The notes: generated by a model from the letters alone, not told the origin. Counted from the stretch's first letter, positions 10,901 through 31,689 are shown. The stretch is 64,000 bases of DNA from an uncultured Planctomycetaceae bacterium (GCA_964531695.1 CAZHEH010000007.1:34121-98120), one strand, 5' to 3'. Made by a program: numbers and translations.

Positions 10901-12058
10901 TCAGTCCGTGTCCCGCGTCAGGATCTGAAGGTACGCGTCGTATGCGTAGACGCGGTCGCGCTGCCGCCCGGTGGTCTCGCGCAGAATGCCCGCTTGCTGG
11001 AGCGTGTCAATGGCCTTGCCCGCCGTGGGCTTGGTCGTATCCAGCAGCTCGACGGCCGCGGGCAGCGTCAGCACCGGTCGGGTGGCCAGGCGCTCCAACA
11101 GCCGGATCGCGCTGAGCGTCGCCCGGCGGTCCTCCACGAGCGTCCGCCGATCCCGCGTCAGCAGGGCGAACAGCCGCTGGGCCGTGGCGACCGCGTCGTC
11201 GGCCGCCTCGCGAACGCACTCCAGGTAATAGACCGTCCATCCCTCCCAGTCGCCTTCCGTCCGCACGCCCGTGAGGCGACGATAGTACTCCCGCTGGCGA
11301 TGCCGGAACGCCACGCTCAGGTACAGCAGCGGCGCGTCGAGCAAGCCCCAGTGCTCCAGCAGCAGCGCGATCAGCAGCCGCCCGATCCGGCCGTTGCCGT
11401 CGAGGAACGGGTGGATCGTCTCGAACTGCACGTGGGCCAGCCCGGCCCGGATCAGCGGCGGCAGCGGGTCGTCCGCGTCTATCCATCGCTCCAGCGAGGA
11501 CATCGCCGCCGGCACCTCCTCCGGCGGCGGGGGCACGAAGGCCGCGTTGCCGGGGCGCCTGCCCCCGACCCAGTTCTGCGAGCGGCGAACCTCACCCGGC
11601 CGCTTCTGGACGCCCCGGGCCCCGGCCATGAGGCGATCGTGGGCCCGGCAAAGCAGCCGCGTGCTCAGCGGCAATCCCCGCGGGCGGGCCATCTCGCGCC
11701 GTGCGTACGACAGCGCCTCGACGTAGTTGCAGACCTCCTCCACGTCCTCCGGCCGGTCGGTCTGCTCCGTCGCCTCGAAGGCCAGCACGTCGCGAAGCGT
11801 GGCCTGCGTGCCCTCGATCTGGGAGGAGATCACGGCCTCCTTGCGGACGAAGCCGTAGAGGAACCAGTCGATGCTAGGCACCATCGAGCCGGCCACCGAG
11901 AGCCGCCCCAGCGCGGCCTGTGCTTCCGTAAGCAGGTCCGCAAGCTCGTCGTCCACGACCAGCGGTGGCTTCGTGGGCGGAAGGGGATGGGGCACGAACG
12001 TCCGGACGGTCTCGCCGCCCGCCGCGCTCGTTCGGTATGCTCCGGTCTGACGCGCCAT
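10901..12058 (-). CDS. Fic family protein (AMPylase fold) with C-terminal winged HTH
   Basis: Canonical Fic motif HPFLDGNGRIGR, N-terminal Fic_N-like region and a C-terminal wHTH (GKAIDTLQQAGILRETTG). Confidence 0.85.
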   Translation of the reverse strand: MARQTGAYRTSAAGGETVRTFVPHPLPPTKPPLVVDDELADLLTEAQAALGRLSVAGSMVPSIDWFLYGFVRKEAVISSQIEGTQATLRDVLAFEATEQTDRPEDVEEVCNYVEALSYARREMARPRGLPLSTRLLCRAHDRLMAGARGVQKRPGEVRRSQNWVGGRRPGNAAFVPPPPEEVPAAMSSLERWIDADDPLPPLIRAGLAHVQFETIHPFLDGNGRIGRLLIALLLEHWGLLDAPLLYLSVAFRHRQREYYRRLTGVRTEGDWEGWTVYYLECVREAADDAVATAQRLFALLTRDRRTLVEDRRATLSAIRLLERLATRPVLTLPAAVELLDTTKPTAGKAIDTLQQAGILRETTGRQRDRVYAYDAYLQILTRDTD

Positions 12059-12142: not shown

Positions 12143-12379
12143 AAGAAGTCCGCGTCGGCCGTCCCCGCAGCCCCCACGGCCGGGGGACAAGGCCCACATT
12201 GCCCGCGCGACGCGGATGTGCGCACAGGCGTTCCTCCCCTTCGCGCGGCTCGGCCGATTTTTCGTCATTTTGCTTAAACCCTATTCAGGCAAGACTTGCA
12301 CTCGTTCCGGCCCGGCCGTGTGCCGCGTCTGTGCGCGCGCCACGCGGCGCGCGGCGGGGGAGGTCGAGGAGACGACGCA

Positions 12380-14023
12380 ATGGCCTTCGACCTGACGAAC
12401 TTCCAAGACCCCGACCTCAGCAGCGACTACGTCCAGTACCTCGTCGAGCACGAGGCGCCGGATCGGGCCCGCCGGCTCGCCCGGGCTTGGGACTACTTCG
12501 CCAACCCGACCCGCCCGCTGAGCCGGACGCTCGCCGACGGCGGCGGAACCAGCGCCCGCCCGTACGTGCAGGCGCAGGAGCAGGGCCTCCCCGCACGCAT
12601 CACCGGCCTCAACCGACTCGGATCGCGGACCCGCGAGACGAACCTGAGCCGCAAGGAAGTCGTCATCGAGAACGACATCGCCTGGCGGGTTCAGACGATG
12701 GTGGATTTCCTCTTCGGGCGTCCGGTGCGGGTGCGTTCGCTCGCGGCGGACGCGAATCTGGCGGCGACGATCGAGCAGGTCGTCGCGACGCTGCTGGAAG
12801 ACAGCGGCGGCGTCGGCTTCTGCCAGGAAGCGGCCCTGTACGGGGCCGTATACGGCTTCGTGGACATCGCTCTCCGGACCCCGGCCGGCGGATCCGCCGT
12901 GTCCGGCCCCGCCCTGCCCAGCGCGGCGGGTCGCGGCGCGGGCGGTCCCCTTCCCGCCGACGCGCCACGCCGGCCGGGGCATCTCAACAACAACGCGCCC
13001 GACGCGGGCGCACAGACCGAGAATGCGGCAGGACCGCCCGGGCGAGCCCGGCCTGAACCGCGACTACAGCGGGCCCTGCAAGCGGCCCGCATGATCCAAC
13101 TGGAGGCCCTGGAGGCCCCCCGGGTCCTGCCCATTCTCGCCGAGGACGACTGCCGCCGCATCCGCTACTGGGTGCAGGTCTACCGCAAGCGTCCGCCGCG
13201 GCTGGCCCGCTCGCGGCGCCCGTGGTTCCTGCCGGGGCGCTCGCACGCCGCCCGCCCCGAGGAGGTCGAGGTCGTCGAGATTCTCGGCCCGACCTGGTGG
13301 CAGCGCTACGAGGACCGCCGCCTGGCGGCCGAGGGCCCCAACGCTCTCGGGCGGCTGCCCGTCGTGCACGTGCAGAACGTCGCCCAGCCGGGGCGCTACG
13401 AGGGGCTCAGCGACGTGCTGCCGCTGATTCCGCTTCAGGATGAGCTGAACACGCGGCTGAGCGACCGGGCGAGCCGCGTGACGTTCCAGTCGTTCAAGAT
13501 GTACCTGGCCAAGGGCATCGACGACTTCCTCGAGCGGCCGATCGCGCCGGGACAGATGTGGGCGACGCACAACCTCGACGCCCGCATCGAGGAGTTCGGC
13601 TCGGACACCGGCTCGCCCAGCGAGGACGCCCACATCGAGCAGGTCCGCCGGGCGATGGACAAGGTCTCCGGCGTCACGCCGCTGGCGGCGGGGCTCATCG
13701 AGGGCAACGTCGGCCACCTCACCAGCGCCACGGCGCTGAAGGTCGTCCTGAGCGGCCTGCTGGCCCGCACGGCCCGCAAGCGTCTGACGTACGGCGCGGG
13801 TCTGGCCGGCGTGGTCGAGCTGGCGCTGGCGTGGCTGGACCGCACCGGCGCGCTGGCCACCCGCCCCGACGACCGGCGGATCGAGATCGACTGGCCCGGC
13901 GTCCTGCCGGAGGATGAGTCCGAGCGGCTCCGCAACGCGGTGGTCAAGTCCCAGCTCGGCGTCCCGGCCGGGCGCATCCTGGCCGAGCTCGGTTACGGCC
14001 CGACCCCCAACGACGTGCATTGA
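12380..14023 (+). CDS. Phage portal protein (probable)
   Basis: 547 aa from MAFDLTNFQDPDLSSDYVQYLVEHEA. It has a portal-like size and an N-terminal R-rich/DYF region, and it sits in the portal-scaffold-capsid gene order. Confidence 0.55.
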   Translation: MAFDLTNFQDPDLSSDYVQYLVEHEAPDRARRLARAWDYFANPTRPLSRTLADGGGTSARPYVQAQEQGLPARITGLNRLGSRTRETNLSRKEVVIENDIAWRVQTMVDFLFGRPVRVRSLAADANLAATIEQVVATLLEDSGGVGFCQEAALYGAVYGFVDIALRTPAGGSAVSGPALPSAAGRGAGGPLPADAPRRPGHLNNNAPDAGAQTENAAGPPGRARPEPRLQRALQAARMIQLEALEAPRVLPILAEDDCRRIRYWVQVYRKRPPRLARSRRPWFLPGRSHAARPEEVEVVEILGPTWWQRYEDRRLAAEGPNALGRLPVVHVQNVAQPGRYEGLSDVLPLIPLQDELNTRLSDRASRVTFQSFKMYLAKGIDDFLERPIAPGQMWATHNLDARIEEFGSDTGSPSEDAHIEQVRRAMDKVSGVTPLAAGLIEGNVGHLTSATALKVVLSGLLARTARKRLTYGAGLAGVVELALAWLDRTGALATRPDDRRIEIDWPGVLPEDESERLRNAVVKSQLGVPAGRILAELGYGPTPNDVH

Positions 14024-14044
14024 CCCCCCAGGAAAGGACACGCG

Positions 14045-14581
14045 ATGAACGACCCGACACAAGACACGCCGACACCGGAGGAAGCCCAACCGGACAGCCC
14101 CGGGCTCGCCCCCGTGGCCGAGTCCATCAAGTACCGCCGCCGAGCGCAGCAGGCCGAGAGACGCGCCGAGGAGCTGGAGCGGCGGCTCGCCGAGCGGGCG
14201 GACCAGCTCGCCACGGCCGAGGCCCAACGGGACGAGGCGGCCCAGCAACTCGCCGCGACCGAGAACCGCGCCGCCGCCGAGCGGATGCTCACGGAGGCGG
14301 GCGTGGCGGACCTGGAGGCGGCGTCGCTGCTGTTGGCCCGGCGGGTGGACCTCGCCCAGCCGGCCGAGGGCGATTCGCTCCGCACGGCCGTCGAGCACCT
14401 CCTGCTGGACAAGCCGTTCCTCCGCGGCGCCGCGCCGCAGTTGCCGCCGACCTCGGCCGGCGAGCGCGGCGACGCTCCGCTCGGAGCGCAGCTCGCCCAG
14501 GCGGCCGACCGCGCCGCGCGGCAGGGCGATCGGCGCAGCATCGCGCATTACCTCCGGCTGAGGCGCCAAGCGGCGAGCTAG
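14045..14581 (+). CDS. Phage scaffolding-like protein (acidic, coiled-coil)
   Basis: 178 aa with a long charged helical segment RRAQQAERRAEELERRLAERADQLATAEAQRDEAAQQLAA. It is located between the portal and the capsid gene. Confidence 0.5.
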   Translation: MNDPTQDTPTPEEAQPDSPGLAPVAESIKYRRRAQQAERRAEELERRLAERADQLATAEAQRDEAAQQLAATENRAAAERMLTEAGVADLEAASLLLARRVDLAQPAEGDSLRTAVEHLLLDKPFLRGAAPQLPPTSAGERGDAPLGAQLAQAADRAARQGDRRSIAHYLRLRRQAAS

Positions 14582-14751
14582 CCGACCGGGCCGTCGCGTG
14601 GGGCATGTGCGAGAGGCCCGTGCCACGCATGCGCGATTGCTCGAGCCGCAGCCATCGGATCGATGGGCCCAGGCGGGCCGAGATTCCCCGGCCGTGCCGG
14701 GAAGGACGTACCCCACACGAACACGAACCTCGAACCTTCAAGGAGCACGAC

Positions 14752-15912
14752 ATGCCATTCACCGGAAAAGCAACCTACTCCGCCGGCAGCGCCCTGCCGG
14801 AACTGGCCGAGGACGTCGGCGACATCATCGGCATCGTCTCGCCGTATGAGACGCCGCTGCTGGACCGCCTCGGCGACGCGGCCCGACCCGCCACGAGCAC
14901 CTACCACGAGTGGCTCGAGGACGAGCTGCTGCCCAACACCGACGCGATCGACGACAACGACTGGACCGACCCGGTCTCCGATCAGACCTTCGGCGTGGAC
15001 CACCCCGAGCGGTTCCGCGTCGGCGACCAGGTCCGCCCCGCGGGCAGCTCCGAGCTGATGCTGGTGGCCGCGACGGACGCCGTCGCCGGCACGATCACCG
15101 TCGACCGCGGCTACGGCGGCACCGCGCCCGAGGACCTCGCCGACGACCAGGTGCTGCACATCCTCGGCAACGCGGCCCTGGAGGGCGACGACGCCCCGGC
15201 CGCCCGCTTCACCCACCGCGTCCGCAAGGGCAACTGGACGCAGATCTTCACCGCCGCGGTTCGCGTCAGCGGCTCGGACCTCGCCGTCCGGAAGCTCGCC
15301 GTCGCCGACGAGCTGGACTACCAGAAGCAGGAGCGGCTCCGCGAGCTGCTGCGCGACCTGGAAAGCACCGTCATCAACGGCACGACCTCCGCGGCTTCGC
15401 CCCAGGGCTCGGCCACCGTCCGCCGCACGATGAAGGGCATCATCCCCTCGCTGACGACGAACGTGTTCCGGCCGAGCGTTGGCGGCTTCCCGAACGACGG
15501 CGACCTGACCGAGACGCAGCTCAACCTCGCCCTGCGCCGCATCTGGGAGGGCGCGTCGAGCCGCATCGACACGATCGTGGTCGGCGGCTACCAGAAGCGC
15601 CGCATCAACTCTTTCATCACGTCGGGGCGCTCGTACGGCCCGGACGACGTGACGTACCGCGAGCTGGTGAGCATCTACGAGAGCGACTTCGGCGTCTGCC
15701 GCGTCGTGCTGTGCCGGTCCGTCCCGGCCGACACGGTGCTGCTGCTGGACAGCTCCCGCGTCGAGGTGCTGCCGCTGGCCGGGCGGAGCTTCCACTTCAA
15801 GCCGCTCAGCGCCGCCGGCGACTACGAGGCCGGCGAGGTCATCGGCGAGTACACGCTGGAGCTGCGGAACGAGAACGCCCACGGCGTCATCACCGGGCTG
15901 GACATCTCCTGA
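14752..15912 (+). CDS. Phage major capsid protein (probable, ~386 aa)
   Basis: ATG at 14752 follows the RBS AAGGAGC. It has a capsid-protein size and position, with a C-terminal region (…RVVLCRSVPADTVLLLDSSRVEVLPLAGRSFHFKPL…) typical of capsid-family proteins. Confidence 0.55.
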   Translation: MPFTGKATYSAGSALPELAEDVGDIIGIVSPYETPLLDRLGDAARPATSTYHEWLEDELLPNTDAIDDNDWTDPVSDQTFGVDHPERFRVGDQVRPAGSSELMLVAATDAVAGTITVDRGYGGTAPEDLADDQVLHILGNAALEGDDAPAARFTHRVRKGNWTQIFTAAVRVSGSDLAVRKLAVADELDYQKQERLRELLRDLESTVINGTTSAASPQGSATVRRTMKGIIPSLTTNVFRPSVGGFPNDGDLTETQLNLALRRIWEGASSRIDTIVVGGYQKRRINSFITSGRSYGPDDVTYRELVSIYESDFGVCRVVLCRSVPADTVLLLDSSRVEVLPLAGRSFHFKPLSAAGDYEAGEVIGEYTLELRNENAHGVITGLDIS

Positions 15913-15985
15913 CCCGCGCGGGCCGACGGTGCGGCGGGTCGATGGCCGGCCCGCCGCGCCGCTCCCGCCCGAGGAGGACGAGCCG

Positions 15986-16639
15986 ATGACATCCTTCTGC
16001 ACGGACAGAGACCTGCTCGCGGCCGAGCCGCTGATCTACCTCAGCGGCGGCTTCCCGGCCCAGGCCCCGGCCGCGGGCGACGACGGCGAACTCGACGGCA
16101 CGAGCTTTACCTCGGCCGGCAGCGACTTCGCCGCCGCGGGGGCCGCCCCCGGCATGGTGCTGCGGGTCGCCGACGGCCCGCAGGCGCAGCGAAGGGCCCT
16201 GGAGGTCGTCTCCGTCGAGGGCCCGACGGCACTGACGGTGTCCGTGCTCCGCCCGGATGCCGAAGCCGACGCCGTGCCGCCGGTCGCGGGCACCGGGCTT
16301 CACTTCGAGCTGCGGACCTTCGCGGCGCAGATCGCCTCCGTCTCGGCCACGCTGGCCGAGAAGCTCCGCACCGCGTCGGAAGCGGCCGGCATCTCCGCGG
16401 CCGAGTTCGCGGACTCGGCCCAGCTCGCCCGGTGCTGTGCGGCCGGCGTGTTGGCGAGCGTCTACACCGCCCGCGCCGAGAACGCCGCCGCCGAGGACGC
16501 CAACTGGACCAAGGCCGAGCACTATCGCCGCGTGTTCCGCCGGAGCCAGGTGCGGCTCCGACTGGCGGTGGACGCCGACTCCGACGGCACGGCCGAGAGC
16601 ACGCGAACGCTGGGGCACGTCGCCCTGCGGAGGGTCTGA
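15986..16639 (+). CDS. Phage-like structural module protein, function unknown
   Basis: Start MTSFCTDRDLLAAEP. First of a chain of translationally coupled ORFs after the capsid gene. Confidence 0.45.
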   Translation: MTSFCTDRDLLAAEPLIYLSGGFPAQAPAAGDDGELDGTSFTSAGSDFAAAGAAPGMVLRVADGPQAQRRALEVVSVEGPTALTVSVLRPDAEADAVPPVAGTGLHFELRTFAAQIASVSATLAEKLRTASEAAGISAAEFADSAQLARCCAAGVLASVYTARAENAAAEDANWTKAEHYRRVFRRSQVRLRLAVDADSDGTAESTRTLGHVALRRV

Positions 16640-16641
16640 GC

Positions 16642-17076
16642 GTGACTTCCACCGAAACCGCCATCTGCCGGGACGCGGCCGCGGCGCTGGACGCCTCGGG
16701 CCTGTTCGCCGAGACGCACGTCGGGCTCGACGCGGCGAGCAATGCCGTGCCGCGGGCGAGCGTCGCCGTCGAGGGCCGCGAGGTCTTCCTCAGCGACGAC
16801 CGCCCCAACGGCCTGTGGGTCCGCCTGCGCCTGCGCGTGTTCGTGCGGGACCGGGCGGACAACGTCGGCGACGGCGTCGCCCGCACGGCCGACCTGTGCG
16901 CCGCGGCGGGCGCGGCCCTGCTGGCGGACCCGAAGCGCGGCGGGCTCTGCCGGGACCTGCCCGTCGGGCGGGCGACGGAGTTGGGCGCGACGGACGCGGT
17001 CACGGGCGTGCGCCGCCCGGCCGTCGAGGCCTCGCTCGCCGTCCGCTGCCACTACGAGACGGAGGACGCGCCATGA
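16642..17076 (+). CDS. Phage-like small structural protein (GTG start)
   Basis: GTG is 2 nt after the previous stop, with GGAGGG about 8 nt upstream. The protein has no internal Met and ends in an ATGA overlap with the next gene. Confidence 0.4.
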   Translation: MTSTETAICRDAAAALDASGLFAETHVGLDAASNAVPRASVAVEGREVFLSDDRPNGLWVRLRLRVFVRDRADNVGDGVARTADLCAAAGAALLADPKRGGLCRDLPVGRATELGATDAVTGVRRPAVEASLAVRCHYETEDAP

Positions 17077-17480
17077 CGCGCTACGCTCGCATCGAATCGC
17101 TCCGCTTCGGCGCGACGGCGCTGCCCCTGCCGATCTCCGTCCGAGTGACGCGCCGGGCGGGGGTCCGCGCCGCCGCCGGCGCGGGCGACCGCTACGCCTC
17201 GAGCGTCGAGTTCGACGGCTGCCGCGTGGAGGCGGAGGTCCGGCTCCGCGGCACGGCCGCCGCCGAGAACCTCGCGCCCGGCGAGGAGGGGACGCTCGCC
17301 TTCACCGTCTCGGCGATGCGCGCGGGCGCGAGCGGGCGGAGCGTCAGAATCTCGGGCGCCGTCCTCACGAGCATCGAGATCGCGTACGAGCAGACGTCCG
17401 CCGCCGTCGCGGTGCTGCGACTCACGGCCGAGTCGGACGGCGGCGCGCACGACCCGCACGCCGCGGAGGATGACGAATGA
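17073..17480 (+). CDS. Phage-like small structural protein
   Basis: MTRYARIESLRFG…. ATGA overlaps on both sides. Confidence 0.45.
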   Translation: MTRYARIESLRFGATALPLPISVRVTRRAGVRAAAGAGDRYASSVEFDGCRVEAEVRLRGTAAAENLAPGEEGTLAFTVSAMRAGASGRSVRISGAVLTSIEIAYEQTSAAVAVLRLTAESDGGAHDPHAAEDDE

Positions 17481-17839
17481 CCACGATCGACGCTCAAGCC
17501 CTGTTCGCCTCCGGCCCGCACTCGCTCCGGCCGGGAACGCCGCAGCGCCATATCGTCCGCCGCGGCCTGCCGGGGCTCGACGGAGAGCTGGCGCTCGACA
17601 TGGGCCTCCGCTCGCGCCGGCTGGTGCACACCGGGCGGCTCCAGGGCCAGACCGCCCAGGAGGTCGCCGATCAACTCGCCGCCATCGAGGCCCGCATCGA
17701 CGGCCGGACGCACCTGCTCGCCGACGACCGGGCCGGAACCTTCCCCCGAGTGCTCATCGAGTCCTGCGAGCCGACGGCCATCCGTCGCGGTCGCCGCTTC
17801 TGGTGCGACTACGAAATCGTCTATCGCCAACTGCCATGA
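17477..17839 (+). CDS. Phage-like small structural protein
   Basis: MTTIDAQALF…. ATGA overlaps on both sides. Confidence 0.45.
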   Translation: MTTIDAQALFASGPHSLRPGTPQRHIVRRGLPGLDGELALDMGLRSRRLVHTGRLQGQTAQEVADQLAAIEARIDGRTHLLADDRAGTFPRVLIESCEPTAIRRGRRFWCDYEIVYRQLP

Positions 17840-18555
17840 CGACCCTCGCCACGGACAACATCGACCGTCTCACGGCCGAGCCGACCCCGAGCGGCTGGCG
17901 CGTCCGCTTCCGCTCCGCGCACCCCGGGCTGTGCCACCAGCTCTACGTCAACGGACGACTCGCCGACTTCACAGACACGCCCGCCGGCCGGGCGTTCGAC
18001 GTGCCGGCCGGCCCCGAGCCGCGCGAGCTTTGCATCGCGGCCGTCGAGCCCGCGCGGCGCGGCGAGGACCTGTCCGGCCTGCTTCCGCCCGCGCTGCGCG
18101 AGCCCGGCTGGCTCTACACGGCCACGGTCGTGCGCGAGCCGGGCGCCCGAGCCGGCGACCTGCTGGCCGTGCGGAGCGACCGGGCCGACGCCCCGCTTCG
18201 GGTTCGCGAGTCGGCCCCGGACTGGCTGCCGCGCTGGGGCTTCGGCGCAAGCGCGTTCGGCCTGGGCGCCGCCGGCTACGGCGGCATCGGCGCGCCGGGC
18301 CTGGGCCGGGGCGGCTTCGGCGCCGGCCCGTTCGGCTTCGGGGCGGCAGTCCTCGAGCTTCGCGTGCCGCTGGCGGCGGACGGGACGCACGCGATCACCC
18401 TCCGCACGCGCTCCGCCGAGGGCCAGACGACCGACACGCCCGGCGGCGAGGTCGTCGCGCATCCGCCGCCCGCGCCCCCGGCCGCGCTGCACGCAACGGC
18501 ATACGACCCGCAGACCCACGCACTCACACTCACCCTCGAGGACCCCACGCCATGA
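17836..18555 (+). CDS. Phage-like structural protein with a Gly-rich segment
   Basis: MTTLATDNIDRL… containing GFGASAFGLGAAGYGGIGAPGLGRGGFGAGPFGFG. ATGA-coupled to its neighbours. Confidence 0.45.
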   Translation: MTTLATDNIDRLTAEPTPSGWRVRFRSAHPGLCHQLYVNGRLADFTDTPAGRAFDVPAGPEPRELCIAAVEPARRGEDLSGLLPPALREPGWLYTATVVREPGARAGDLLAVRSDRADAPLRVRESAPDWLPRWGFGASAFGLGAAGYGGIGAPGLGRGGFGAGPFGFGAAVLELRVPLAADGTHAITLRTRSAEGQTTDTPGGEVVAHPPPAPPAALHATAYDPQTHALTLTLEDPTP

Positions 18556-20135
18556 CCGAACTCTACCCCACCGACGCCGAGCTGAACGCCCTGTCGGGCA
18601 CCGTCGACCCCGAGCAGGAGGTCCTGTTCATCCCCACCGGCGAGAGCCCCTACCACACGAGCTTCTACAAGATGCTCCACCGCCTGCTCGACGTCGCGCG
18701 GCGGGCCGGCGACCTCCGCGTGTACAAGGACGGCGAGCTGACCTTCGGCGTCCGCGCCGGGCGGTTCCTCGACGGCGCCACGCCCGTGGAGTTCCCCGGC
18801 GCCGGCGAGCAGCCGCTGACCGACAACGCGACCCAGGCGATCTACCTGCTTGCCGACGGGACGCTCGCGGTCGCGACGGACGGCTTTCCCGACCCGGCCG
18901 CCGTGCCGAACATCCCGCTGGCGACGATCGACTGCGCCGACGGCGGCTACGACCACGCCGACATCACAGACTGCCGCGGGCGGGCCATGCTCTCCGCGGC
19001 CAGCGGCATGGCGGCCGCGGACGCCAACGCCCTGACCGGCGGGGGCATCGCCGGGGGCCTCCACACGCACGCCGCCGAGGGCATCGAGGACGGCGCCGTG
19101 ACGGCGGCCAAACTCGCCGCCGCGGCCAGCCAGGAAATCACGGCCAGCAATCAGACGATCCAGCACGACGGCCGGCGCCTCGTCTCGCTGACCACGCCCG
19201 ACGGAGCGACCAAGGTGCTCGGCACAACCGCGGCGGCGGTCGCCGACGGAACCGTGGACGGCCAACTGCTCACGCTCCGATGCGCGGGCGGCGAGGGGTC
19301 GCTCCGGATCGCGGACAATCCCCCCACGGCCAACGTGGACCTGGGCGGCGACTGGTATCCGTACGAGACGGACATCGACGTGTCCCTGACCCTGATGTGG
19401 GACGCCTCCGCCGGGCTGTGGCGCGAGCTGTTCCGTTCCTCGGCCGCCAACGACAACTCGGGCCTCCTGGCCGCCGCGTCGGGCGGGCGGGACCACAGCA
19501 ATACCGGCGGGTACGCCGGGAGCGCCGGCGGGCGCTTCAACGTGAACTCCCACAACTACACGGGCAGCGCCGGCGGCTTTTCCATCACCAACAGCGGCCC
19601 GCGGGCGGGTTCCGTCGGCGGCCAGGGCAACACCAACTCCGGCGCATCCTCCGGCTCGGTCGGCGGCGTGCATGCGAAATGCCGCCATGAAGCCGAGTCG
19701 CTCGCCGCGTCCTACGGCCTGGAGGCGAGCCCCGGCGATTGTCAGGTGACGAACTTCATGCTGCGGGGCGATTACACGGCCGACGCGAACGAACACACCA
19801 CGCCCGTCTGGCATGAATTGACCTCGCCCGAGCGGTGGACGCTGGAGGCCGAGACGACGGTCGGATTCACGGTGACGGTCGTGGGCCGCAAGTCGGACGG
19901 CTCGAAGGCGGCGCTGTTCAAGCGGATGGCGCTGCTGGAGCGGGATGACTCGAACAACACAACCATCGTGGGTGCGGCCCAGACCCTCGGCACGGACATC
20001 GCCGACGACGCGAACTGGGACGTGCAACTGTCGGCCGACGACACGAACGAAGCCCTGAAGATTGAGGTCCATGCCGCCGACAACGACGGCGACGTGCGAT
20101 GGACCGCCCACGTGCAGGCGCAGGTCTGCGGATAG
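18552..20135 (+). CDS. Tail-fibre / receptor-binding-like protein (Gly/Ser-rich repeats)
   Basis: 527 aa. Repeats SNTGGYAGSAGGRFNVNSHNYTGSAGGFSITNSGPRAGSVGGQGNTNSGASSGSVGG are typical of phage fibre proteins. Confidence 0.5.
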   Translation: MTELYPTDAELNALSGTVDPEQEVLFIPTGESPYHTSFYKMLHRLLDVARRAGDLRVYKDGELTFGVRAGRFLDGATPVEFPGAGEQPLTDNATQAIYLLADGTLAVATDGFPDPAAVPNIPLATIDCADGGYDHADITDCRGRAMLSAASGMAAADANALTGGGIAGGLHTHAAEGIEDGAVTAAKLAAAASQEITASNQTIQHDGRRLVSLTTPDGATKVLGTTAAAVADGTVDGQLLTLRCAGGEGSLRIADNPPTANVDLGGDWYPYETDIDVSLTLMWDASAGLWRELFRSSAANDNSGLLAAASGGRDHSNTGGYAGSAGGRFNVNSHNYTGSAGGFSITNSGPRAGSVGGQGNTNSGASSGSVGGVHAKCRHEAESLAASYGLEASPGDCQVTNFMLRGDYTADANEHTTPVWHELTSPERWTLEAETTVGFTVTVVGRKSDGSKAALFKRMALLERDDSNNTTIVGAAQTLGTDIADDANWDVQLSADDTNEALKIEVHAADNDGDVRWTAHVQAQVCG

Positions 20136-20249
20136 GGGACGGCCGAATTCGGCGCTCGACGCTCGACGCGCAACGTGCCGCGAGGCGTCGAAGGTCGGCC
20201 CGATTCCTCTGCTCGGGATCGCCGAACCGTCGCAATCGAGAACGCACCC

Positions 20250-20816
20250 ATGCCCAACACCTACAACATCTACCTCGGCATCGGCTCGGTGGAGGCCGTC
20301 GATTGGTCGCAGCCGGTGGTCGTGGCGAACGGGCCCGGCCCCGTCGAGGTTCCGCTGACGGCCGAGCCGGGCGTGCGATACGTCCTGGCGGCGCGGGCCG
20401 TGTCCGAGGCCGGCGTCGAGGAACGCAACACGCACGTGTCGGCCGTCGTCGAGGTCGATGAGGCCGGCGCGCTGCTGCCGCCCCCGCCGCCTCGGTGCGA
20501 GGACACGACGGCGCGCCTGCTGACGGACGGCGACGCGCGGGTCGAGTGGTCCTGTCGCGCCCGGCCGGGCCGGGCGGAGCCGGACGGTTTCGACGTGTTC
20601 ACCGACGACGGCACCGGGACGCTCGACCTGGCCACGCCCGCCGCCGCGCTCGATGCGGTCGGTCCGGATCAGCGCGAGTTCGCCCTACGGCTGACGCCCG
20701 CCGCGCCGCCGCTGAAGCTGGCCGTGCGCGGCCGCGCGGGCGGACGTGTCGGCCCACTGAGCCGAATCGTCACGCTGGCCGCACCGGTCCCGCCCGCGCC
20801 CGCCAACGTCCTGTGA
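20250..20816 (+). CDS. Phage-like structural protein, function unknown
   Basis: MPNTYNIYLGIGSVEAVDWSQPVV…; Pro-rich. Confidence 0.4.
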   Translation: MPNTYNIYLGIGSVEAVDWSQPVVVANGPGPVEVPLTAEPGVRYVLAARAVSEAGVEERNTHVSAVVEVDEAGALLPPPPPRCEDTTARLLTDGDARVEWSCRARPGRAEPDGFDVFTDDGTGTLDLATPAAALDAVGPDQREFALRLTPAAPPLKLAVRGRAGGRVGPLSRIVTLAAPVPPAPANVL

Positions 20817-20823
20817 GGAACCC

Positions 20824-22548
20824 ATGCAGACACTCACGCTGATGCCGACCCCGCCCGAGCCGGTCCTTCGCTGCCGCCCGCCCCGCGTCTACGCGGCCGG
20901 GCTGCGGCGGCGCGACCTGGAGGTGCTGTCGATCGAGTGGCTGCCCGCGCCCGACTTCTGCCGGGCGCGGCTGCGCGTGCATCCGCCCGGATCGCGCTCT
21001 GAGGATGCGTGCTTCGAGCGGCCGGGGGCCCTGCCGCCTGTCGGCTGCCCGATCACCATCCACCCCGGCGACGGCGACGCGGGTGTCCTGCCGGGCGTCG
21101 TGACGGCGCACGAGGCGGTCTTGGGCGAGCGGGGCGAGCAACTCATCGCACACGTTTCGCACGTGCTGGCCGAGCGCCTCGCCGCGCCGGCAGGGTGGCG
21201 CTGGCAGGTCGGGCCGGACGGCGCGCCGCTAACGGTCGCCGGCGCGCGCACGTCCTTCAACGGCGACGGCGGTTGGGCCTCGGCCGATCTGCACGAACTC
21301 AACGGCAGGCCGGCGCGCGTCTTCGCCGCCTGCCCGAACGCCCGACGCTGGACGGTCGCCGACGCGCTGGGGTACCTCCTCGCTGCGCTCGCGCCCGCGG
21401 ACGTGACCGTTCCGGGCCGCGAGGAGTTGCAGGAACGGGCCGGGGGCATCGACCTTGGCCGCGTGGACGTGAGCGGCAGGTCCGCGGCCGCGGCGATTGT
21501 CGCCGTTGCGCATCGCGGTGGGCTGGAGGTGCGAGCCGCGCGCGACGGGCTCGGCATCGTCCTCTATCGTCCTGGCCGGGACGGCCGGCGCGTCTCCGTC
21601 CGCCAACAGCCCGCCGGCGAGGCGCTCGACCGGACCCGCAGCAACCTGTGGCGCGCCCGGCTCCGCTTCCGCCGCCGCCCCGGTCGCCGGGCCGTCCTCG
21701 CGCTCGGCGGACCGAAGCTCTACGAAACGACCGTCGAACTCGCGCCCGGCTGGAACCCGTCGGACGCGACCGGTCGCTGGCGCGACCACGTCCGCTCGCT
21801 CGCCGGCGGCGGCCCCGGCTCGCGCGAGGTTCTCCGAGCATGGGTGCTCAACGAGCATGGGCGCTACGGCGCCTCGCCGTGGATGCTGCCCACGCACGAC
21901 TTCGCGGCACTCGGCGAGGACTTCTTCCTGTCCGTCCCGCGGCGCCTGCGGCCGTGTGTGTCGACCGACGCGGCCGGCCGGTCGCTCGGCATCGTCGTCG
22001 AATGGCGGCCCGAGGCGGGTGCCGGCTGGCGTCCTTGGCCCGGACCGGTGTACGTGTCCCGCGACGAGTGCAGCGTGCGGCTCGGCGGGGATGCGCTGCC
22101 GGGCGCATACTTCCGGGCGGCGCTCGCGGGCACGGCCGGGGTGCGCGTCACGGCGACGATCGCCTCCGACGCCCGCCTGTCCGTGGAGGTGCCCGGCGAC
22201 GCGAACCTTCCTCGAGAGGTGATCGATCTCGGCACTCAGGCCGGTTGGCAAACCGTTCACGAGACGAGCATCTTCCACAACGCCGCGCCCGGCGAGCCGG
22301 CGGAGCGCGACGACGCGGCCGTGCTCGGTGCGCTCGCCGAGCGGCACGCCGAATCCCTCACCGGCGCCGCCCAGGCCGAACTGACGCTCGCGTGGGTCGA
22401 TCCGACCTACGCCGTCGGCGACCTCGTCGAGCGCGTCGAGGGGCGAACGCTGGAGCTGCCCGCGGCGCCCGATCGCAGCCCGGCCGTGACGAGAGTCCGG
22501 CACGAGTTCGGCAAGACCCAGACCACCACACTCACGCTGGAGGCATGA
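20824..22548 (+). CDS. Large phage-like structural protein (574 aa), tail or baseplate candidate
   Basis: Co-oriented and ATGA-coupled to the next gene. No recognisable enzymatic motif. Confidence 0.45.
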   Translation: MQTLTLMPTPPEPVLRCRPPRVYAAGLRRRDLEVLSIEWLPAPDFCRARLRVHPPGSRSEDACFERPGALPPVGCPITIHPGDGDAGVLPGVVTAHEAVLGERGEQLIAHVSHVLAERLAAPAGWRWQVGPDGAPLTVAGARTSFNGDGGWASADLHELNGRPARVFAACPNARRWTVADALGYLLAALAPADVTVPGREELQERAGGIDLGRVDVSGRSAAAAIVAVAHRGGLEVRAARDGLGIVLYRPGRDGRRVSVRQQPAGEALDRTRSNLWRARLRFRRRPGRRAVLALGGPKLYETTVELAPGWNPSDATGRWRDHVRSLAGGGPGSREVLRAWVLNEHGRYGASPWMLPTHDFAALGEDFFLSVPRRLRPCVSTDAAGRSLGIVVEWRPEAGAGWRPWPGPVYVSRDECSVRLGGDALPGAYFRAALAGTAGVRVTATIASDARLSVEVPGDANLPREVIDLGTQAGWQTVHETSIFHNAAPGEPAERDDAAVLGALAERHAESLTGAAQAELTLAWVDPTYAVGDLVERVEGRTLELPAAPDRSPAVTRVRHEFGKTQTTTLTLEA

Positions 22549-23096
22549 CGATGGACCCCTGCCAGGGACACGACGCACTCGGCCGGCTCGTGCAGGCCGG
22601 CGGCCGCGCGGGCATGATGCTCTTCCGCCTGACCGGCCTGGAAGGCGGCAACCGCTACACGGCGCTGCCCGTCGAGTTCGACGCGGACGGCGCAACGGAG
22701 CCGGCGTCCGACGAGCCGGTGACCGTGACGAACCTGGCCGAGCCCGCCGACGCGGACGGCGCGATCCCGGCCGGGACGGAAGCCGTCGGCGTCGACGTCG
22801 AGGGACGCTGGGTCGTCTTCCTGCGCCCCGTCGCGGCGGGCGCCTTCCCGGCGCGGGTCCTCGCCTCGGCCGGCGGCGCCGCGTACACGGTGCGCGAGCA
22901 GCTCGCCACCGGGCCGGGGCAGTTCACCGACAAGCCGGGGGCCGCCGACGCGACGGCCCACAATCTGGCCGAGTTATCGCTCGGTCCGGGCGCGGCCGTG
23001 GAGGACGACACCCTCGTCCTGGTCACCGCGCTGTCCGACGGGGCCGAGACCCGTCACGTGTTCGACCATCCCGCCTACGCCAAGTACCTGGATTGA
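22545..23096 (+). CDS. Phage-like structural protein
   Basis: MTMDPCQGHDALGRLV…. ATGA overlaps on both sides. Confidence 0.45.
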   Translation: MTMDPCQGHDALGRLVQAGGRAGMMLFRLTGLEGGNRYTALPVEFDADGATEPASDEPVTVTNLAEPADADGAIPAGTEAVGVDVEGRWVVFLRPVAAGAFPARVLASAGGAAYTVREQLATGPGQFTDKPGAADATAHNLAELSLGPGAAVEDDTLVLVTALSDGAETRHVFDHPAYAKYLD

Positions 23097-24139
23097 CCAT
23101 GACCTACGCACCCGCTTGGACACAACAGAACGCATCCGGCCGCTTGGAACCCGCCGTGGATCGGGTCCGCGCGGTCAGCGCGGCCGAGCTCGCCGACGCC
23201 GTCAACCGCAGGCGGCGGCTGACCTACCGCGAGGCGCACGACTACTCGCCGCAGATCACCGCCGGGCTGCCGGTTCGCCTGACGACGCTCGCCACGGCCG
23301 AGGCGCCGCCGCTGGACAACCTACGCGATGCGCTCGCCGTCCACGTGCTCGAGCCGCCCCCGGGCGGGCTGGGCGGCGACCCGCCGACACCGGCCGCGAT
23401 GGAATGGCTGTGGCCCGAGCCGGACGGCGACGAGGGCAAGGTCATCGTCCCGGCCGGCGCGGGGGCCGGCGAGGTGGCGCTGCCGGCCAAGCTCAACGGC
23501 ACGGAGGACTGGACCGACCCGGCCCCTTCGGCGGGGACCACGCCGATCCGCGCGGTGCACTGGAACGAGCTGCGGCAGGCCGTCGAGTGGCTGCGCCGCG
23601 GTCGCTGGGTGCTGCCGGTGTATCTGACGGCCGGGGTCTTCTCCGTCCTGCCCGACACGCCGTGGACGGGCGACGCCGTCGCCAACAACGGCACGAACGA
23701 GCTGCGGGCGGTCGGCTTCGCCCTGCTTCGGACCGGCGACGACCCGCCGCGCGGGCTGACGGACGTGACGGTGCTCGACGCGACCGGGCTCGAACTCACC
23801 GCGGACCTCGACTGCAAGATCGAGGCATACCGCTGCAAGCGGCCGTTGGACTTCGTCGCCGACCCGCCCACGTGGAACGAGTACGCGCCCGCGAGCGACC
23901 TCGCCTGGCAGTCGCCGGGCGGGACCGGCCCGGACGACGCCGAGAGGATCGGCACGCTCGACCTGTCCGCGGGCGAGCCGTCCGCGCTGACCGGCCCGGC
24001 GCTGGCGTCGGCCTGCCAGGCGATGGTCGGCGGCGCCGAGCAATCGTTTCTCTTCCGCCGCGCCGACACCGGGCCCGAGACGGTCGGGCTTATCGCGTGG
24101 CTCACCGTCGCGTTCGAGTTGAACGCGCCGCCCAACTGA
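23093..24139 (+). CDS. Phage-like structural protein (348 aa)
   Basis: Last of the overlapping chain. Confidence 0.45.
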   Translation: MTMTYAPAWTQQNASGRLEPAVDRVRAVSAAELADAVNRRRRLTYREAHDYSPQITAGLPVRLTTLATAEAPPLDNLRDALAVHVLEPPPGGLGGDPPTPAAMEWLWPEPDGDEGKVIVPAGAGAGEVALPAKLNGTEDWTDPAPSAGTTPIRAVHWNELRQAVEWLRRGRWVLPVYLTAGVFSVLPDTPWTGDAVANNGTNELRAVGFALLRTGDDPPRGLTDVTVLDATGLELTADLDCKIEAYRCKRPLDFVADPPTWNEYAPASDLAWQSPGGTGPDDAERIGTLDLSAGEPSALTGPALASACQAMVGGAEQSFLFRRADTGPETVGLIAWLTVAFELNAPPN

Positions 24140-24149
24140 GGAAACCGCC

Positions 24150-24434
24150 GTGACACTGACCGCCTTCATGTCGGAATTCGCCAGCTTCGGCGCGGCCGGG
24201 CTCATGGGCGCGATGTGGCTGTGGGAGCGCCGCGCCGGGCGGCTCCGCGAGCAGCAGCTCACCGACGCCCACGAGCGCATCGGCCGCGACGAGCAGCGGC
24301 TGGAACACCTCTCGCGGGTGGTGGAAGCCAACACGACGGCGCTGACTCGCTTCTCCGAAACGCAACGGCACCTCGCCGAGACACTCAAGGACCTCGCAAG
24401 GGAGTACCGCAATGACCACGCACGCAAGACGTAG
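24150..24434 (+). CDS. Small membrane protein (one N-terminal TM helix, charged tail), holin-like candidate
   Basis: FASFGAAGLMGAMWLW TM helix followed by a highly charged C-terminus. Confidence 0.4.
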   Translation: MTLTAFMSEFASFGAAGLMGAMWLWERRAGRLREQQLTDAHERIGRDEQRLEHLSRVVEANTTALTRFSETQRHLAETLKDLAREYRNDHARKT

Positions 24435-24936
24435 GGCGCCCGCGCGGACGCCGCATCGGTTTCTTCTGGCCGCACTGTGCCTGTTTTCGCCCCTGGCCGG
24501 CTGCGAGGCGCCACCGGCGACGATAGAGCTCATCGCCGTCGCCCGGACCGGCCTGGCCGGTGCGGGCGAGGCGGAGGACCAGCGACACGAGCAGGAACAG
24601 GCCCACCTCGCCGCGCAGACGGCCGCGCTGGACGCCGCGTTCGACGCGGACGTTCGCCTCGCGGCCGCGGGCGAGCTGAGGGGCGCCGACGGCGAGCGGG
24701 TCGCGCTCGACGCCGAGTGGGTCATCTCCGCGCGCAAGGGCTACGCCGCCGCGCGCGACCTGCTGGCGGATGAGGCCCGCGCCGCCGAGCGCGAACACGC
24801 CACGCGGGCGGACAACCTGCGGGCGTCGGATGAGGCGCTGGAGATGGCCCAGGAGCTGATCGCCGAGCGGTGGGCCGTCGGGGCCCGCGTGCGGCGGACC
24901 GTGATGAACCTCTTCAGGAGCACGAACGATGAATGA
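24412..24936 (+). CDS. Lipoprotein with coiled-coil region, spanin-like candidate
   Basis: Lipobox LFSPLAGC. Ala/Glu-rich helical body. It overlaps the upstream and downstream genes. Confidence 0.4.
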   Translation: MTTHARRRAPARTPHRFLLAALCLFSPLAGCEAPPATIELIAVARTGLAGAGEAEDQRHEQEQAHLAAQTAALDAAFDADVRLAAAGELRGADGERVALDAEWVISARKGYAAARDLLADEARAAEREHATRADNLRASDEALEMAQELIAERWAVGARVRRTVMNLFRSTNDE

Positions 24937-25180
24937 CCCCGTACAGCAGGCCGTGGAACAAGCCGTCGGCCGGGCCTTCGACGCCTGGGCGGCCGAGCAC
25001 CCCTCCCTCGCGGCCGTGATCGACCGCATCGCGCTGACGGAGCGATCCGTCGCCTCCCTCCGCGAGACGGACGCCTACCGCGCGGCCGTGGCGGCCTACC
25101 ACCGCGACCGCAGCCAGGCCGAGCTCGTCAGCCGCCTGACCGACGCGGCCGCGGGCGTACTCGGGCGGCTGCTGGCGTAA
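24929..25180 (+). CDS. Small hypothetical protein (83 aa)
   Basis: ATGAATGA overlap with the preceding gene; no motifs. Confidence 0.3.
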   Translation: MNDPVQQAVEQAVGRAFDAWAAEHPSLAAVIDRIALTERSVASLRETDAYRAAVAAYHRDRSQAELVSRLTDAAAGVLGRLLA

Positions 25181-25326: not shown

Positions 25327-25539
25327 ATGCGAAGCTTCCTCGAACGCATCTCGTCGCGCAAGTTCCTGACCGCCCTGGCCGTGCAGATCGCGGCCGTGGT
25401 GGCCCTGTTCCGCCCCGCCGACGCCGAAACGCTCCACACCGCCGCCGTCCGCATCGCCGCCCTGGCGGCTCTCATCCTCGCCGCACTCGGCTACGGCAAG
25501 ATCGAGGCGGAGGTGGACAAGGCGGGAGTCAAGCGGTGA
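25327..25539 (+). CDS. Small two-TM membrane protein (70 aa), holin-like
   Basis: RBS AAGGAG precedes the ATG. Two hydrophobic helices (LTALAVQIAAVVALF and AALAALILAALGY). ATGA overlap with the next gene. Confidence 0.4.
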   Translation: MRSFLERISSRKFLTALAVQIAAVVALFRPADAETLHTAAVRIAALAALILAALGYGKIEAEVDKAGVKR

Positions 25540-26096
25540 AGAGCGTGACGGGGCTGAGAAGCCCATTGCGGTGGTCGGGAGGACAGAGCCGGGTGGCGAA
25601 GGACATAGTAAACTGTGTTCCCAAACACTCCGCCTATGTGGAACCGTGCTGCGGGGCGGCTTGGGTCTTCTGGGCTAAGCCGAAGGAGCTGTCGCGTGCG
25701 GAAGTACTCAATGATCTCGACGGCGAACTGATCAACTTCTACAGGACCTTGCACAGGCGGGGTCGCCGGCTTACTCAGGAGGTAGACTCGATTCCGTACT
25801 CACGTCGCCTCTTCCGGCAGGTCGCGCATAGTAAGCCGCGAACGGCCTTCGCCCGAGCCGTCCAGTTCGGCGATGGGGATCACGTGCGTCTCCGCGAAGT
25901 CCTTCGGCGGACGGCTGGCTGCTGGCTGCTGAGCTACAGGAATTGCGCACAGGTGCGGCGTCTGTACAAGGGCTGTCACCGCAAGCTCGTGAGCACGCGC
26001 TACACATTGGGCTGCAATTCCGCCGCCCGCGCCCGGTCCGAGGCGCGCGAACTCCTGCTGAGCAACCGCCCATTACTGCGTAGGGGGCGCGCGTAG
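25536..26096 (+). CDS. D12-class (Dam-like) N6-adenine DNA methyltransferase homologue lacking the central DPPY catalytic segment; probably inactive
   Basis: The N-terminus PLRWSGGQSRVAKDIVNCVPKHSAYVEPCCGAAWVFWAKP…VLNDLDGELINFYRTL aligns to Dam motifs X/I. The C-terminus CWLLSYRNCAQVRRLYKGCHRKLVSTRYTLGCNS…ELLLSN aligns to the Dam C-terminus. Only 186 aa remain, and the DPPY region (about 90 aa) is missing. Confidence 0.6.
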   Translation: MKSVTGLRSPLRWSGGQSRVAKDIVNCVPKHSAYVEPCCGAAWVFWAKPKELSRAEVLNDLDGELINFYRTLHRRGRRLTQEVDSIPYSRRLFRQVAHSKPRTAFARAVQFGDGDHVRLREVLRRTAGCWLLSYRNCAQVRRLYKGCHRKLVSTRYTLGCNSAARARSEARELLLSNRPLLRRGRA

Positions 26097-31000: not shown

Positions 31001-31645
31001 ATGATTCAGGCAGTCATACTCGATCTCGACGGCGTCATCGTCTCGACGGATGAGCAGCACTACCGCGGCTGGCAGAAGCTCGCCGACGAGGAGGGCATCC
31101 CCTTCGACCGCGAGACGAACCATCGGCTGCGCGGCGTCAGCCGCATGGCCAGCTTGGAGATCATCCTCGAGCGGTCGACGCGCGAGTACTCGGACGACGA
31201 GAAGGCCGAGATGGCCGCACGCAAGAACGGCTACTACCGCCAGATGCTCGCGGAGCTCTCGCCCGAGGCGATTCTGCCCGGCGCCATGGAAGTGATGGAC
31301 GCCTGCCGGGCCCGCGGGGCGAAGCTCGCCGTCGCCTCCTCCAGCCGGAACACGCCGTACATCCTGGAGCGGATCGGCCTGAGCGACTACTTCGACGCCA
31401 CCGCCGACGGCAACGACATCACGCACTCGAAGCCGCACCCGGAGGTCTTCCTGCTGGCCGCCGAGCGGGTGGGCGTTCCGCCGCAGGATTGCCTGGTCGT
31501 CGAGGACGCCCGCGCCGGCGTCGAGGCGGGGCTGGCCGGCGGCATGAAGGTCCTCGGCGTCGGCGACGCCGCCGGCGACGAACGCGCCCACCTCACCGCC
31601 GCCGACCTCTCGGCCGTGACGGCAGAGGAACTGCTGGCGATGTGA
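31001..31645 (+). CDS. pgmB: HAD-superfamily hydrolase, beta-phosphoglucomutase family
   Basis: DLDGVI motif I, S/T motif II and a K…(V)EDA…G…G pattern. RBS GAAGGAGG. Confidence 0.7.
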   Translation: MIQAVILDLDGVIVSTDEQHYRGWQKLADEEGIPFDRETNHRLRGVSRMASLEIILERSTREYSDDEKAEMAARKNGYYRQMLAELSPEAILPGAMEVMDACRARGAKLAVASSSRNTPYILERIGLSDYFDATADGNDITHSKPHPEVFLLAAERVGVPPQDCLVVEDARAGVEAGLAGGMKVLGVGDAAGDERAHLTAADLSAVTAEELLAM

Positions 31646-31689
31646 GGGCCACCGTCAGCCGTCAGCTCTCGGGTGTCGGCTAGCACTCC

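Follow-up and report, generated by a model that had tools for sequence, protein, structure and literature searches.

What a compact set of phage head and tail genes is doing in a bacterial chromosome, with none of the genes that pack, integrate or replicate phage DNA beside it, is the question raised by a 64-kb stretch (the window; positions below count from its first letter) of a 101-kb contig from an uncultured Planctomycetaceae bacterium (GCA_964531695.1 CAZHEH010000007.1:34121-98120). An earlier note on this DNA had proposed a domesticated module resembling a gene transfer agent (GTA). That proposal has held up, as the portal and capsid genes are real, the module is collinear in 80 of 80 related genomes, its genes are under purifying selection and the large terminase (TerL) of relatives lies apart from it. 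Very probably the block is one half, with the structural and lysis genes, of a particle system that Phycisphaerae domesticated from a phage long ago and have since passed on vertically. More specifically, and with a probability of roughly 0.7, positions 12380-25180 are the structural/lysis operon of a chromosomally fixed GTA-like "viriform", derived from a caudovirus and passed down vertically across the class Phycisphaerae. For the function of the system, DNA transfer as a GTA is the likeliest reading, at odds a little better than even.

Head genes and operon layout

Since the window has a GC content of ~70%, genes were called via third-position GC; every module open reading frame (ORF) and all terminase-sized ORFs of the window were scanned against Pfam and PHROG, and structure models were predicted for two proteins only, g8 and g11. 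From 12380 to 25180 an unbroken run of 16 plus-strand genes fills 12.8 kb, with a 17th gene at 25327-25539, and most junctions within the run are 4-nt overlaps or gaps of less than 20 nt, so that 12380-25180 is a single tightly coupled operon. The canonical order of portal, scaffold and capsid with intact frames was seen correctly in the earlier note, and heads a gene series that is unbroken from 12380 onward. Its end had been put at 24139, which is too early, as the series continues through g14, g15 and g16 to 25180, collinear in related genomes. The ten ORFs that follow the capsid gene had been described as joined by overlaps, which is nearly right: ATGA-type 4-base overlaps join g5/g6, g6/g7, g7/g8, g8/g9 and g11/g12, and the other junctions are gaps of 2-114 nt. 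The GC content is similar to that of the chromosome, as had been said, but is slightly higher in the module (0.71-0.75 versus 0.68-0.70 in the flanks), and the argument from it is weak by itself. Scanned for intrinsic terminators and for sigma-70 promoters, the module yielded nothing useful and no convincing plus-strand terminator.

The portal (12380-14023, plus strand as are all genes of the run, 547 aa) matches Pfam SPP1_portal at E 2.6e-9 and phrog_104 at E 4.5e-21, and has orthologues in 75 related loci at 41-76% identity. The major capsid protein (MCP; 14752-15912, 386 aa) is an HK97-fold protein of the SU10 type, with Pfam SU10_MCP at E 9.2e-84 and phrog_1328 at E 5.7e-69, and so both of these assignments are secure. 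Between them lies the scaffold-like gene (14045-14581, 178 aa), for which position speaks, as does conservation across 70 loci; the profile matches that go with it are weak (Pfam Phage_scaffold E 3.5e-3, PHROG scaffolding families E 2.8e-3), and it has no protease domain. Beyond these three, the remaining module proteins have no Pfam hits and PHROG matches that are weak at most.

Conservation and descent in the Phycisphaerae

A scan for the MCP over one genome per species (185,579 species) found relatives in at least 524 species-level genomes, and the best 80 of these were compared with the window by tblastn of all its proteins. They come from 80 different assemblies with one locus in each, all titled Planctomycetota and mostly labelled Phycisphaerae, Phycisphaerales, Sedimentisphaerales or Anaerohalosphaeraceae; titles such as "Pirellulales" or "Planctomycetaceae" on some of the metagenome-assembled genomes (MAGs) are submitters' labels only. 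In these 80 the capsid is 63-84% identical to that of the window and its ORF is always intact, as are more than 90% of the portal and g4 ORFs. The shared order runs portal, scaffold, MCP, g4, (g5, g6), g7, g8, the g9 N-terminus, a variable region, (g10) and g11-g16. Synteny in related genomes, to which the earlier note had looked for a check, is thus in its favour, with the module collinear and intact in all 80 and flanked by housekeeping genes. For every gene dN/dS (NG86, eight locus pairs) lies between 0.05 and 0.54, and judged by these ratios all module genes are under purifying selection.

The neighbours of the module are retained within clades. Upstream of the portal stand MurD, adenylosuccinate lyase (PurB) and DUF4870 genes in 13 loci and a PfkB kinase gene in 19, and on the complete 7.5-Mb chromosome of a Sedimentisphaerales member (L060) the module sits between amylase-like and spore-photoproduct-lyase genes. 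Mean pairwise identity of the MCP is 0.82 and 0.75, versus 0.68 for PfkB and 0.69 for PurB, and the divergence of portal and MCP follows that of PfkB (Spearman 0.86 and 0.74). No integrase or replication gene was found within 10 kb of any related locus examined. Taken from gene order and divergence, the pattern is strongly suggestive of mostly vertical inheritance and co-diversification with the hosts.

Viral relatives and the prophage question

Among the 2.9 million viral contigs of IMG/VR there are 24 with MCP relatives, and all of these are at or below 40% identity save one (L083). The metagenomic phages L084-L098 have a capsid 37-40% identical to that of the window. In two true phages, L084 and L085, the order is TerL, portal, scaffold, MCP, with TerL directly upstream of the portal, and the window module begins exactly at the point where TerL ends in them. 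Conservation in hosts together with this scarcity among viral contigs argues for a domesticated vertical element and not for a prophage family or a decaying remnant.

The single close viral copy lies on a 41-kb contig (IMG/VR UViG_3300033145_000895; L083:7023-8183), where an intact capsid gene with 77% identity to the window MCP stands by itself in a recombination/replication region, with an exonuclease/RecT pair on one side and a Holliday-junction resolvase and methyltransferases on the other. It is far from that phage's own TerL (16717-18057) and outside any structural module. From this setting it looks like the capture by a phage of a host's domesticated capsid gene.

An ordinary prophage, or what is left of one, is a reading for which the coincidence with the end of the phage TerL speaks: a widespread temperate phage family would have integrated independently in many Phycisphaerae, and this copy would have lost its left arm with terminase, integrase and replication genes. 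Further support for it comes from the window's edges. Abutting the portal is a Fic gene (10901-11995, minus strand; Fic_N, Fic and a winged helix-turn-helix (HTH)) of a family common in phages (phrog_5978, E 2.4e-83), just downstream of the module at 25536-26096 lies a truncated D12-class (Dam) DNA methyltransferase, and by tblastn it is the module that relatives have in common with the window and not its flanks. What speaks against it is that all 80 genomes have the same truncated content, their ORFs being intact and dN/dS staying below 1, that housekeeping neighbours are kept within clades with no phage-type integration or replication gene near, that the capsid is more conserved than the adjacent housekeeping enzymes across orders, and that the viral contigs hold essentially no close relatives.

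The surroundings in the window point the same way. Terminase, integrase, protease, tape-measure, sheath and replication genes, which had been reported as lacking, were indeed not found in the 64 kb by Pfam and PHROG, and phmmer with nine phage TerLs gave no match there. The earlier note had held that a terminase, integrase and replication module contiguous with the block would make it an ordinary prophage; host genes are what is found, over 12 kb upstream and 39 kb downstream, among them flagellar, tetratricopeptide-repeat (TPR), sigma-factor and glycosyltransferase genes. A tRNA scan and an Rfam scan of the window were both empty, and it holds no attachment (att)-like or tRNA context. An integrase with att sites, a replication/lysogeny module and a portal-adjacent terminase, by which a prophage is usually known, were not found in the 64 kb. 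The ordinary prophage reading is largely refuted, and we consider it very improbable.

Connector and tail-tip genes

Next to the capsid gene comes g4 (15986-16639, 217 aa), present in all clades (75 loci) and from its position after the MCP a candidate head-to-tail adaptor; it has a weak PHROG match to a "pilot protein" (E 2.3e-3), and its profile search of the PDB gave coiled-coil noise only. The g5 protein (16642-17076, 144 aa) is connector or tail-terminator-like (phrog_4204 tail terminator, E 1.5e-5), and is found in 26 loci, all of the clade closer to the window, being missing from Sedimentisphaerales loci such as L060. To the closer clade also belongs g6 (17073-17480, 135 aa, 22 loci), a small putative virion protein with no profile or PDB match, and g7 (17477-17839, 120 aa, no PDB match) is a core small connector-like protein of all clades (65 loci). 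Sequence-profile searches of the PDB with g4, g5, g6, g7, g8, g12 and g13 gave noise only.

For the tail, the most informative protein is g11 (20824-22548, 574 aa). Its AlphaFold2 model has a predicted local distance difference test (pLDDT) score of 86.5, and Foldseek against the PDB gave 43 matches at E<=1e-3, the best being 7b5h_AJ, the hub of the Anabaena contractile injection system (CIS), at E 6.5e-12, with further matches to 9gtr_q, 3cdd, 9ki1_G (Mu) and 6j0m_A (PVC). The strong matches cover the Streptomyces CIS, the MuSo2 and Mu hubs, PVC, siphophage Tal proteins and VgrG of the type VI secretion system (T6SS), and a sequence profile had indicated Pvc8/Afp8. By its modelled fold g11 is a gp27/VgrG-like baseplate hub, of the gp27 / Mu gp44 / VgrG-Afp8 type. 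The podovirus-type tail expected from the SU10 capsid family is therefore unsupported, the tail tip being built on the predicted gp27/VgrG-type hub and not on a podovirus nozzle. To our knowledge the SU10 tail itself is not hub-based.

The g8 protein (17836-18555, 239 aa) was considered as a tail tube and this was ruled out, as its model (pLDDT 68) has two FN3/Ig-like beta-sandwich domains with a Gly-rich linker. The fibre- or receptor-binding-like g9 (18552-20135, 527 aa) has a conserved N-terminal domain of ~150 aa; its Gly/Ser-repeat shaft and C-terminus vary between genomes, other loci align with it at the N-terminus only, and the ORF there is 145-653 aa long. With it goes g10 (20250-20816, 188 aa), whose counterparts in relatives are proteins of 650-744 aa that match it in their C-terminal part, and this pattern over g9 and g10 is, as far as alignments go, typical of receptor-binding fibres. 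Behind the hub are g12 (22545/22551-23096, 181-183 aa), a conserved putative tail-tip protein of 17 loci with a median identity of 57% and no profile or PDB match, and g13 (23099-24139, 346-348 aa), a candidate enzyme or baseplate protein with no Pfam, PHROG or PDB match. In conservation the latter is second only to the MCP, with a mean column identity of 63% in the alignment, 43 invariant columns and many invariant W/R/N/E residues.

In four of the head operons, at loci of the Phycisphaeraceae type (L037, L045, L066, L113), the tail-tip genes g8-g13 are missing at the locus, and MCP and g4 (and g7 in L037) run directly into g14 (plus g15/g16 in L037). These are either tail-less variants or loci whose tail genes have been relocated elsewhere.

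A puncturing hub beneath a variable fibre also suits a particle of another use, and a domesticated particle other than a GTA, which we consider unlikely but rank first among the alternatives, has to be weighed here. It could be a PBSX-like killer or a bacteriocin of the phage-like kind, serve as a decoy against phages, or be a delivery device with a capsid for its head, and its benefit would lie in killing competitors or blocking phages and not in recombination of transferred DNA. Target-specific killing fits the VgrG/gp27-type hub and the hypervariable C-terminus of the fibre, and the captured capsid gene in the early region of L083 suggests phage-host conflict around the particle. The loci without tail-tip genes fit a tail-acting device poorly, since head and lysis genes are what they keep, and the terminases of relatives, small (TerS) and large, are as conserved as the capsid, which points to DNA packaging. 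The evidence that bears on a killer particle is equally compatible with a GTA.

Packaging genes at a separate locus in relatives

With the TerLs of the phage relatives as probes, a TerL was found in three loci (L040, L047, L082; E ~1e-36), all of the Sedimentisphaerales clade and ~6 kb from the portal, and the ORF in L040 is above the cut-off of Pfam Terminase_6C. Between TerL and portal lie host genes (pseudouridine synthase, PfkB) and a conserved block that encodes a sigma-70-region-4-like protein (146-158 aa), an ABC-like ATPase, a conserved protein of unknown function, a ParB-like protein and a small-terminase-like protein (143-167 aa). A database of 5.8 billion proteins has at least 2005 clusters of this TerL family, the best 120 of them 69-90% identical, so that in its degree of conservation TerL is close to the capsid.

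The arrangement differs between lineages. In L107-L109 TerL stands alone among metabolic genes, and variable insertions separate it from the rest of the block. Three high-GC contigs (L110, 0.69; L111, 0.75; L115, 0.71) have a compact block that stands among host genes, 7-10 kb around it being free of structural genes, and another high-GC TerL (HVX83691.1) is annotated as from a Phycisphaerae MAG. The contig of this last TerL (L113; 108 kb, GC content 0.67) also has the LexA-like gene, the packaging block and, convergent to them, a head operon that ends 9 kb away; the capsid of this operon is 61% identical to that of the window, and host genes and a Fic gene intervene before the TerL block. Linked, split and distant arrangements among relatives indicate that the system is multi-locus and that the distance between its halves depends on the lineage. 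Judged by gene order, host genes or more than 10 kb of DNA stand between packaging block and structural operon in relatives. The earlier note had allowed that the large terminase may be encoded elsewhere, and this is borne out in relatives, which carry a highly conserved TerL at a separate or split-off locus.

These findings bear on a further alternative, a capsid-forming satellite, resembling capsid-forming phage-inducible chromosomal islands (cf-PICIs), that would depend on the terminase and other missing functions of a helper phage. It would account for a locus that itself encodes portal, scaffold, capsid and connectors but has no TerL in the window, and for relatives with no tail genes at the locus. 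Such a satellite would have an integrase, a replication initiator and helper-dependent packaging. Neither an integrase, a primase/replicase nor a repressor-antirepressor module is at the locus (in the window neither an integrase nor a replication gene was found), and its position between host genes is fixed. Relatives own a conserved TerS and TerL, hub, fibres and lysis genes are all encoded in the window copy itself, and the distribution looks vertical. We hold this to be the least likely of the readings considered, with very little probability left to it.

Regulation of the two halves

Beside the block, on the opposite strand, four of the five high-GC contigs examined have a LexA/CI-like gene with HTH_3 and Peptidase_S24 domains (L110:5099-6040, L111:3469-4431, L113:1512-2615, L115:6249-7469); the fifth contig, L114, starts inside the packaging block. 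In a low-GC locus (L082) it is an HTH_3 plus Peptidase_M78 gene that adjoins TerL. Repressor-like neighbours of this kind suggest, by their domain content, that control may be damage-inducible. A near-consensus sigma-70 promoter (TTGACA-N17-TAATAT or TATACT) precedes the packaging operon in relatives (L040:6151-6500, L047:6347-6630, L035:6028-6475, L110:6040-6370), and as it ends a few bases before the start codon the packaging transcript may be leaderless.

The structural operon has a different candidate signal, the T-rich element GATTTTTCG at 12256-12264 on the plus strand, 116 nt upstream of the portal ATG, which could be a promoter or activator site. In GC-rich relatives a ATTTTTCG-like box recurs at ~100-130 nt before the portal, and in the Sedimentisphaerales clade the T-rich box lies in a 40-nt box, TTTTTCGCATCAAACGCGCAGGTTCGTCCCATTTATAGAGG, that is itself conserved. 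The 9-mer GATTTTTCG, tried as the marker of a regulon, was not enriched in the window. A divergent gene for a sigma-54-dependent activator was seen ~1 kb upstream of the portal in L034, L037, L045 and L068. Control by sigma-54 was considered and dropped, as a scan of 65 portal-upstream regions for TGGCAC-N5-TTGC gave nothing consistent.

Lysis genes and flanks

Small membrane genes had been taken as the outer boundary of the module downstream; they exist, but as members of it, since the first two look, from their sequences, like a spanin pair. The i-spanin-like g14 (24150-24434, 94 aa) has an N-terminal membrane anchor and a coiled coil, a weak match to the Rz-like spanins of phrog_89 (E 3e-3) and an N-terminus, FGAAGLMGAMWLWER, that is conserved and almost invariant in 16 loci. 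The o-spanin-like lipoprotein g15 (24412-24936, 174 aa) has the lipobox LAGC, and its signal peptide and L-x-G-C lipobox are kept in seven of seven orthologues. The final conserved module gene is g16 (24929-25180, 83 aa), with orthologues in eight loci and always after g15. Behind it the holin-like g17 (25327-25539, plus strand, 70 aa) has two transmembrane segments predicted from hydropathy and is absent from other loci. The adjoining Dam methyltransferase matches its profile at positions 1-75 of 253 only, and as this fragment is, like g17, missing from related loci it is a lineage-specific remnant beside the module.

The flanking genes fic, ymdB and GH10 had been named correctly, and coordinates were recovered for all three, with YmdB at 9990-10805 (minus strand) upstream and GH10 at 26255-27706 downstream. 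The upstream flank as a whole has fliF, fliE, flgC, flgB, a sigma-54 activator, TPR proteins, an extracytoplasmic function (ECF) sigma factor, DUF6263, YmdB and Fic, and the downstream flank has GH10 followed by a type II secretion system (T2SS)-type ATPase, glycosyltransferases, flagellin, FlgK and FlgE. Flagellar clusters bracket the module region (fliF/fliE/flgC/flgB at 1-1538, flagellin/flgK/flgE at 52731-63999), and from them the organism is probably motile. Fic genes were also seen near packaging or structural loci elsewhere (L035:938-2119, L113:14041-15126, L114:5489-6574), with 31-37% identity to the Fic of the window; from such occurrences the association of Fic with the module may be real or may be coincidental. 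At 31600-35550 the GC content falls from ~0.69 to 0.56-0.57, and the two largest ORFs there (32227-33300, 357 aa; 34395-35231, 278 aa) have no Pfam match; this segment is probably a foreign island.

Comparison with known systems

In RcGTA the head genes g3/g5 belong to the Phage_portal and HK97-type Phage_capsid families. Here SU10_MCP and SPP1_portal are the best and only Pfam families for capsid and portal, and because both differ the element is not of the RcGTA family (Rhodogtaviriformidae), with an origin unrelated to it. The likeness is one of organisation, in that both have a chromosomally fixed set of caudovirus-derived head, tail and lysis genes that lacks integrase and replication genes, vertical descent across a large clade (here strongly suggested), more than one locus and a sigma-like or HTH activator (here a candidate). 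RcGTA differs in having TerL at the head of its main cluster, a prohead protease, a tube and a tape measure, and in its phylum; its function has been demonstrated, whereas that of the Phycisphaerae element is proposed. BaGTA of Bartonella and BhGTA/VSH-1 of Brachyspira are independent domestications that co-diversify with their hosts, as the present element probably does, and for BhGTA the TerL is only putative; they belong to other lineages and gene families, and the present element would be a further independent exaptation, far wider by species count.

The PBSX-like elements of Bacillus, chromosomally fixed defective phages under SOS-type regulation whose particles carry packaged host DNA and leave the cell by lysis, offer a parallel. 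They are contiguous and myovirus-like with terminase, sheath and tube and occur in few species, whereas the element here is split, has no sheath or tube and is class-wide. Escherichia phage SU10 (Kuravirus) and the phages L084-L098 share the Pfam SU10_MCP capsid family with it; the latter are real phages with genomes of ~33-41 kb and TerL upstream of the portal, and only their capsid is detectably homologous. Extracellular contractile injection systems (eCIS) and tailocins (Afp, PVC, AlgoCIS, Anabaena CIS) have in their Afp8/Pvc8/Cis8 spike-hub proteins the closest structural relatives of g11. They are built from sheath, tube and baseplate wedges with no capsid or portal, whereas the present element has both of these, neither a sheath nor a tube was detected in it, and its g8 is FN3-like.

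GTA viriforms have been delimited as forming caudovirion-like particles from proteins derived from caudoviricetes and as having a fully endogenized, often multi-locus genome; their own genes are not fully packageable, given the limited head size, inheritance is mostly vertical and DNA is delivered to cells (10.1101/2022.06.10.494566). Functional GTAs are recorded there from two alphaproteobacterial types, a Brachyspira, a Desulfovibrio and a Methanococcus, as separate domestications. In the element described here portal, SU10-type MCP and gp27-like hub are caudovirus-derived by profile or structure similarity, the module has host genes on both sides, in the window as in the 80 relatives, and the TerL locus of relatives is separate or split off. 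Split loci alone would bar co-packaging of the element's own genes where the halves lie far apart. It looks like an undescribed GTA-like element, an independent GTA-like domestication in a new phylum of which the split architecture and the hub-based tail tip are distinctive.

Several points weigh against the reading as a GTA-like viriform. What makes a GTA, the packaging of random host DNA and the delivery of that DNA, is here purely inferred. The packaging block is known from relatives only and was not found in the 64 kb searched of the source contig. No tube, tape-measure or sheath protein was identified among the module ORFs by Pfam or PHROG, no endolysin was recognised in the module, and g4-g7, g12 and g13 are without an assigned fold. 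The window's flanks (fic, ymdB) are unlike those of relatives. In the PurB clade co-divergence is moderate (Spearman 0.34-0.44) and for MCP versus portal is ~0, which leaves room for recombination or replacement between lineages. In full-text searches of the literature no paper turned up that connects Phycisphaerae, Sedimentisphaerales or Planctomycetota with GTAs or a conserved phage-like module. A cultured member of the class, Poriferisphaera heterotrophicis, is reported to release hexagonal phage-like particles of ~30 nm on nitrate or ammonium, which are ascribed to an extrachromosomal 21.9-kb phage (PMC10945688).

A possible mechanism and its significance

From the parts and their conservation we infer a regulatory cascade, a DNA content of the particles and a delivery step. 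Stress would lift the LexA/CI-like repressor and so turn on the packaging operon, whose sigma-like protein might activate the structural operon via the T-rich box upstream of the portal. Procapsids would assemble independently of a protease and be filled with DNA by a headful mechanism through TerS/TerL, after which a short hub-and-fibre tail tip would join the head. A subpopulation of cells would lyse via the spanin-like and holin-like proteins, and DNA would be delivered to related cells, with the variable C-terminus of the fibre setting the specificity.

The fullest form of this proposal goes further and is tentative, at somewhat less than even odds. It would have an independently evolved multi-locus GTA of the Phycisphaerae, with an SU10-type head, a VgrG-like hub tip and a cascade of SOS-type repressor and sigma-like activator, that is older than the split of Phycisphaerales and Sedimentisphaerales and is the main route of gene exchange in the class, and whose capsid gene phages of the L083 type have captured so as to interfere with it.

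We know of no natural mechanism of gene exchange in Planctomycetota, and genetic tools exist for few of their species. If the GTA reading is true, the phylum would have a class-wide, ancient and independently derived member of the GTAs. It would also provide a second large comparative data set, besides RcGTA, on the passage from phage to host organelle, for which the features of interest here are the loss of protease, tube and tape measure, the split of packaging from structural genes, the retention of a LexA/CI-like switch and a capsid conserved beyond the neighbouring housekeeping enzymes.

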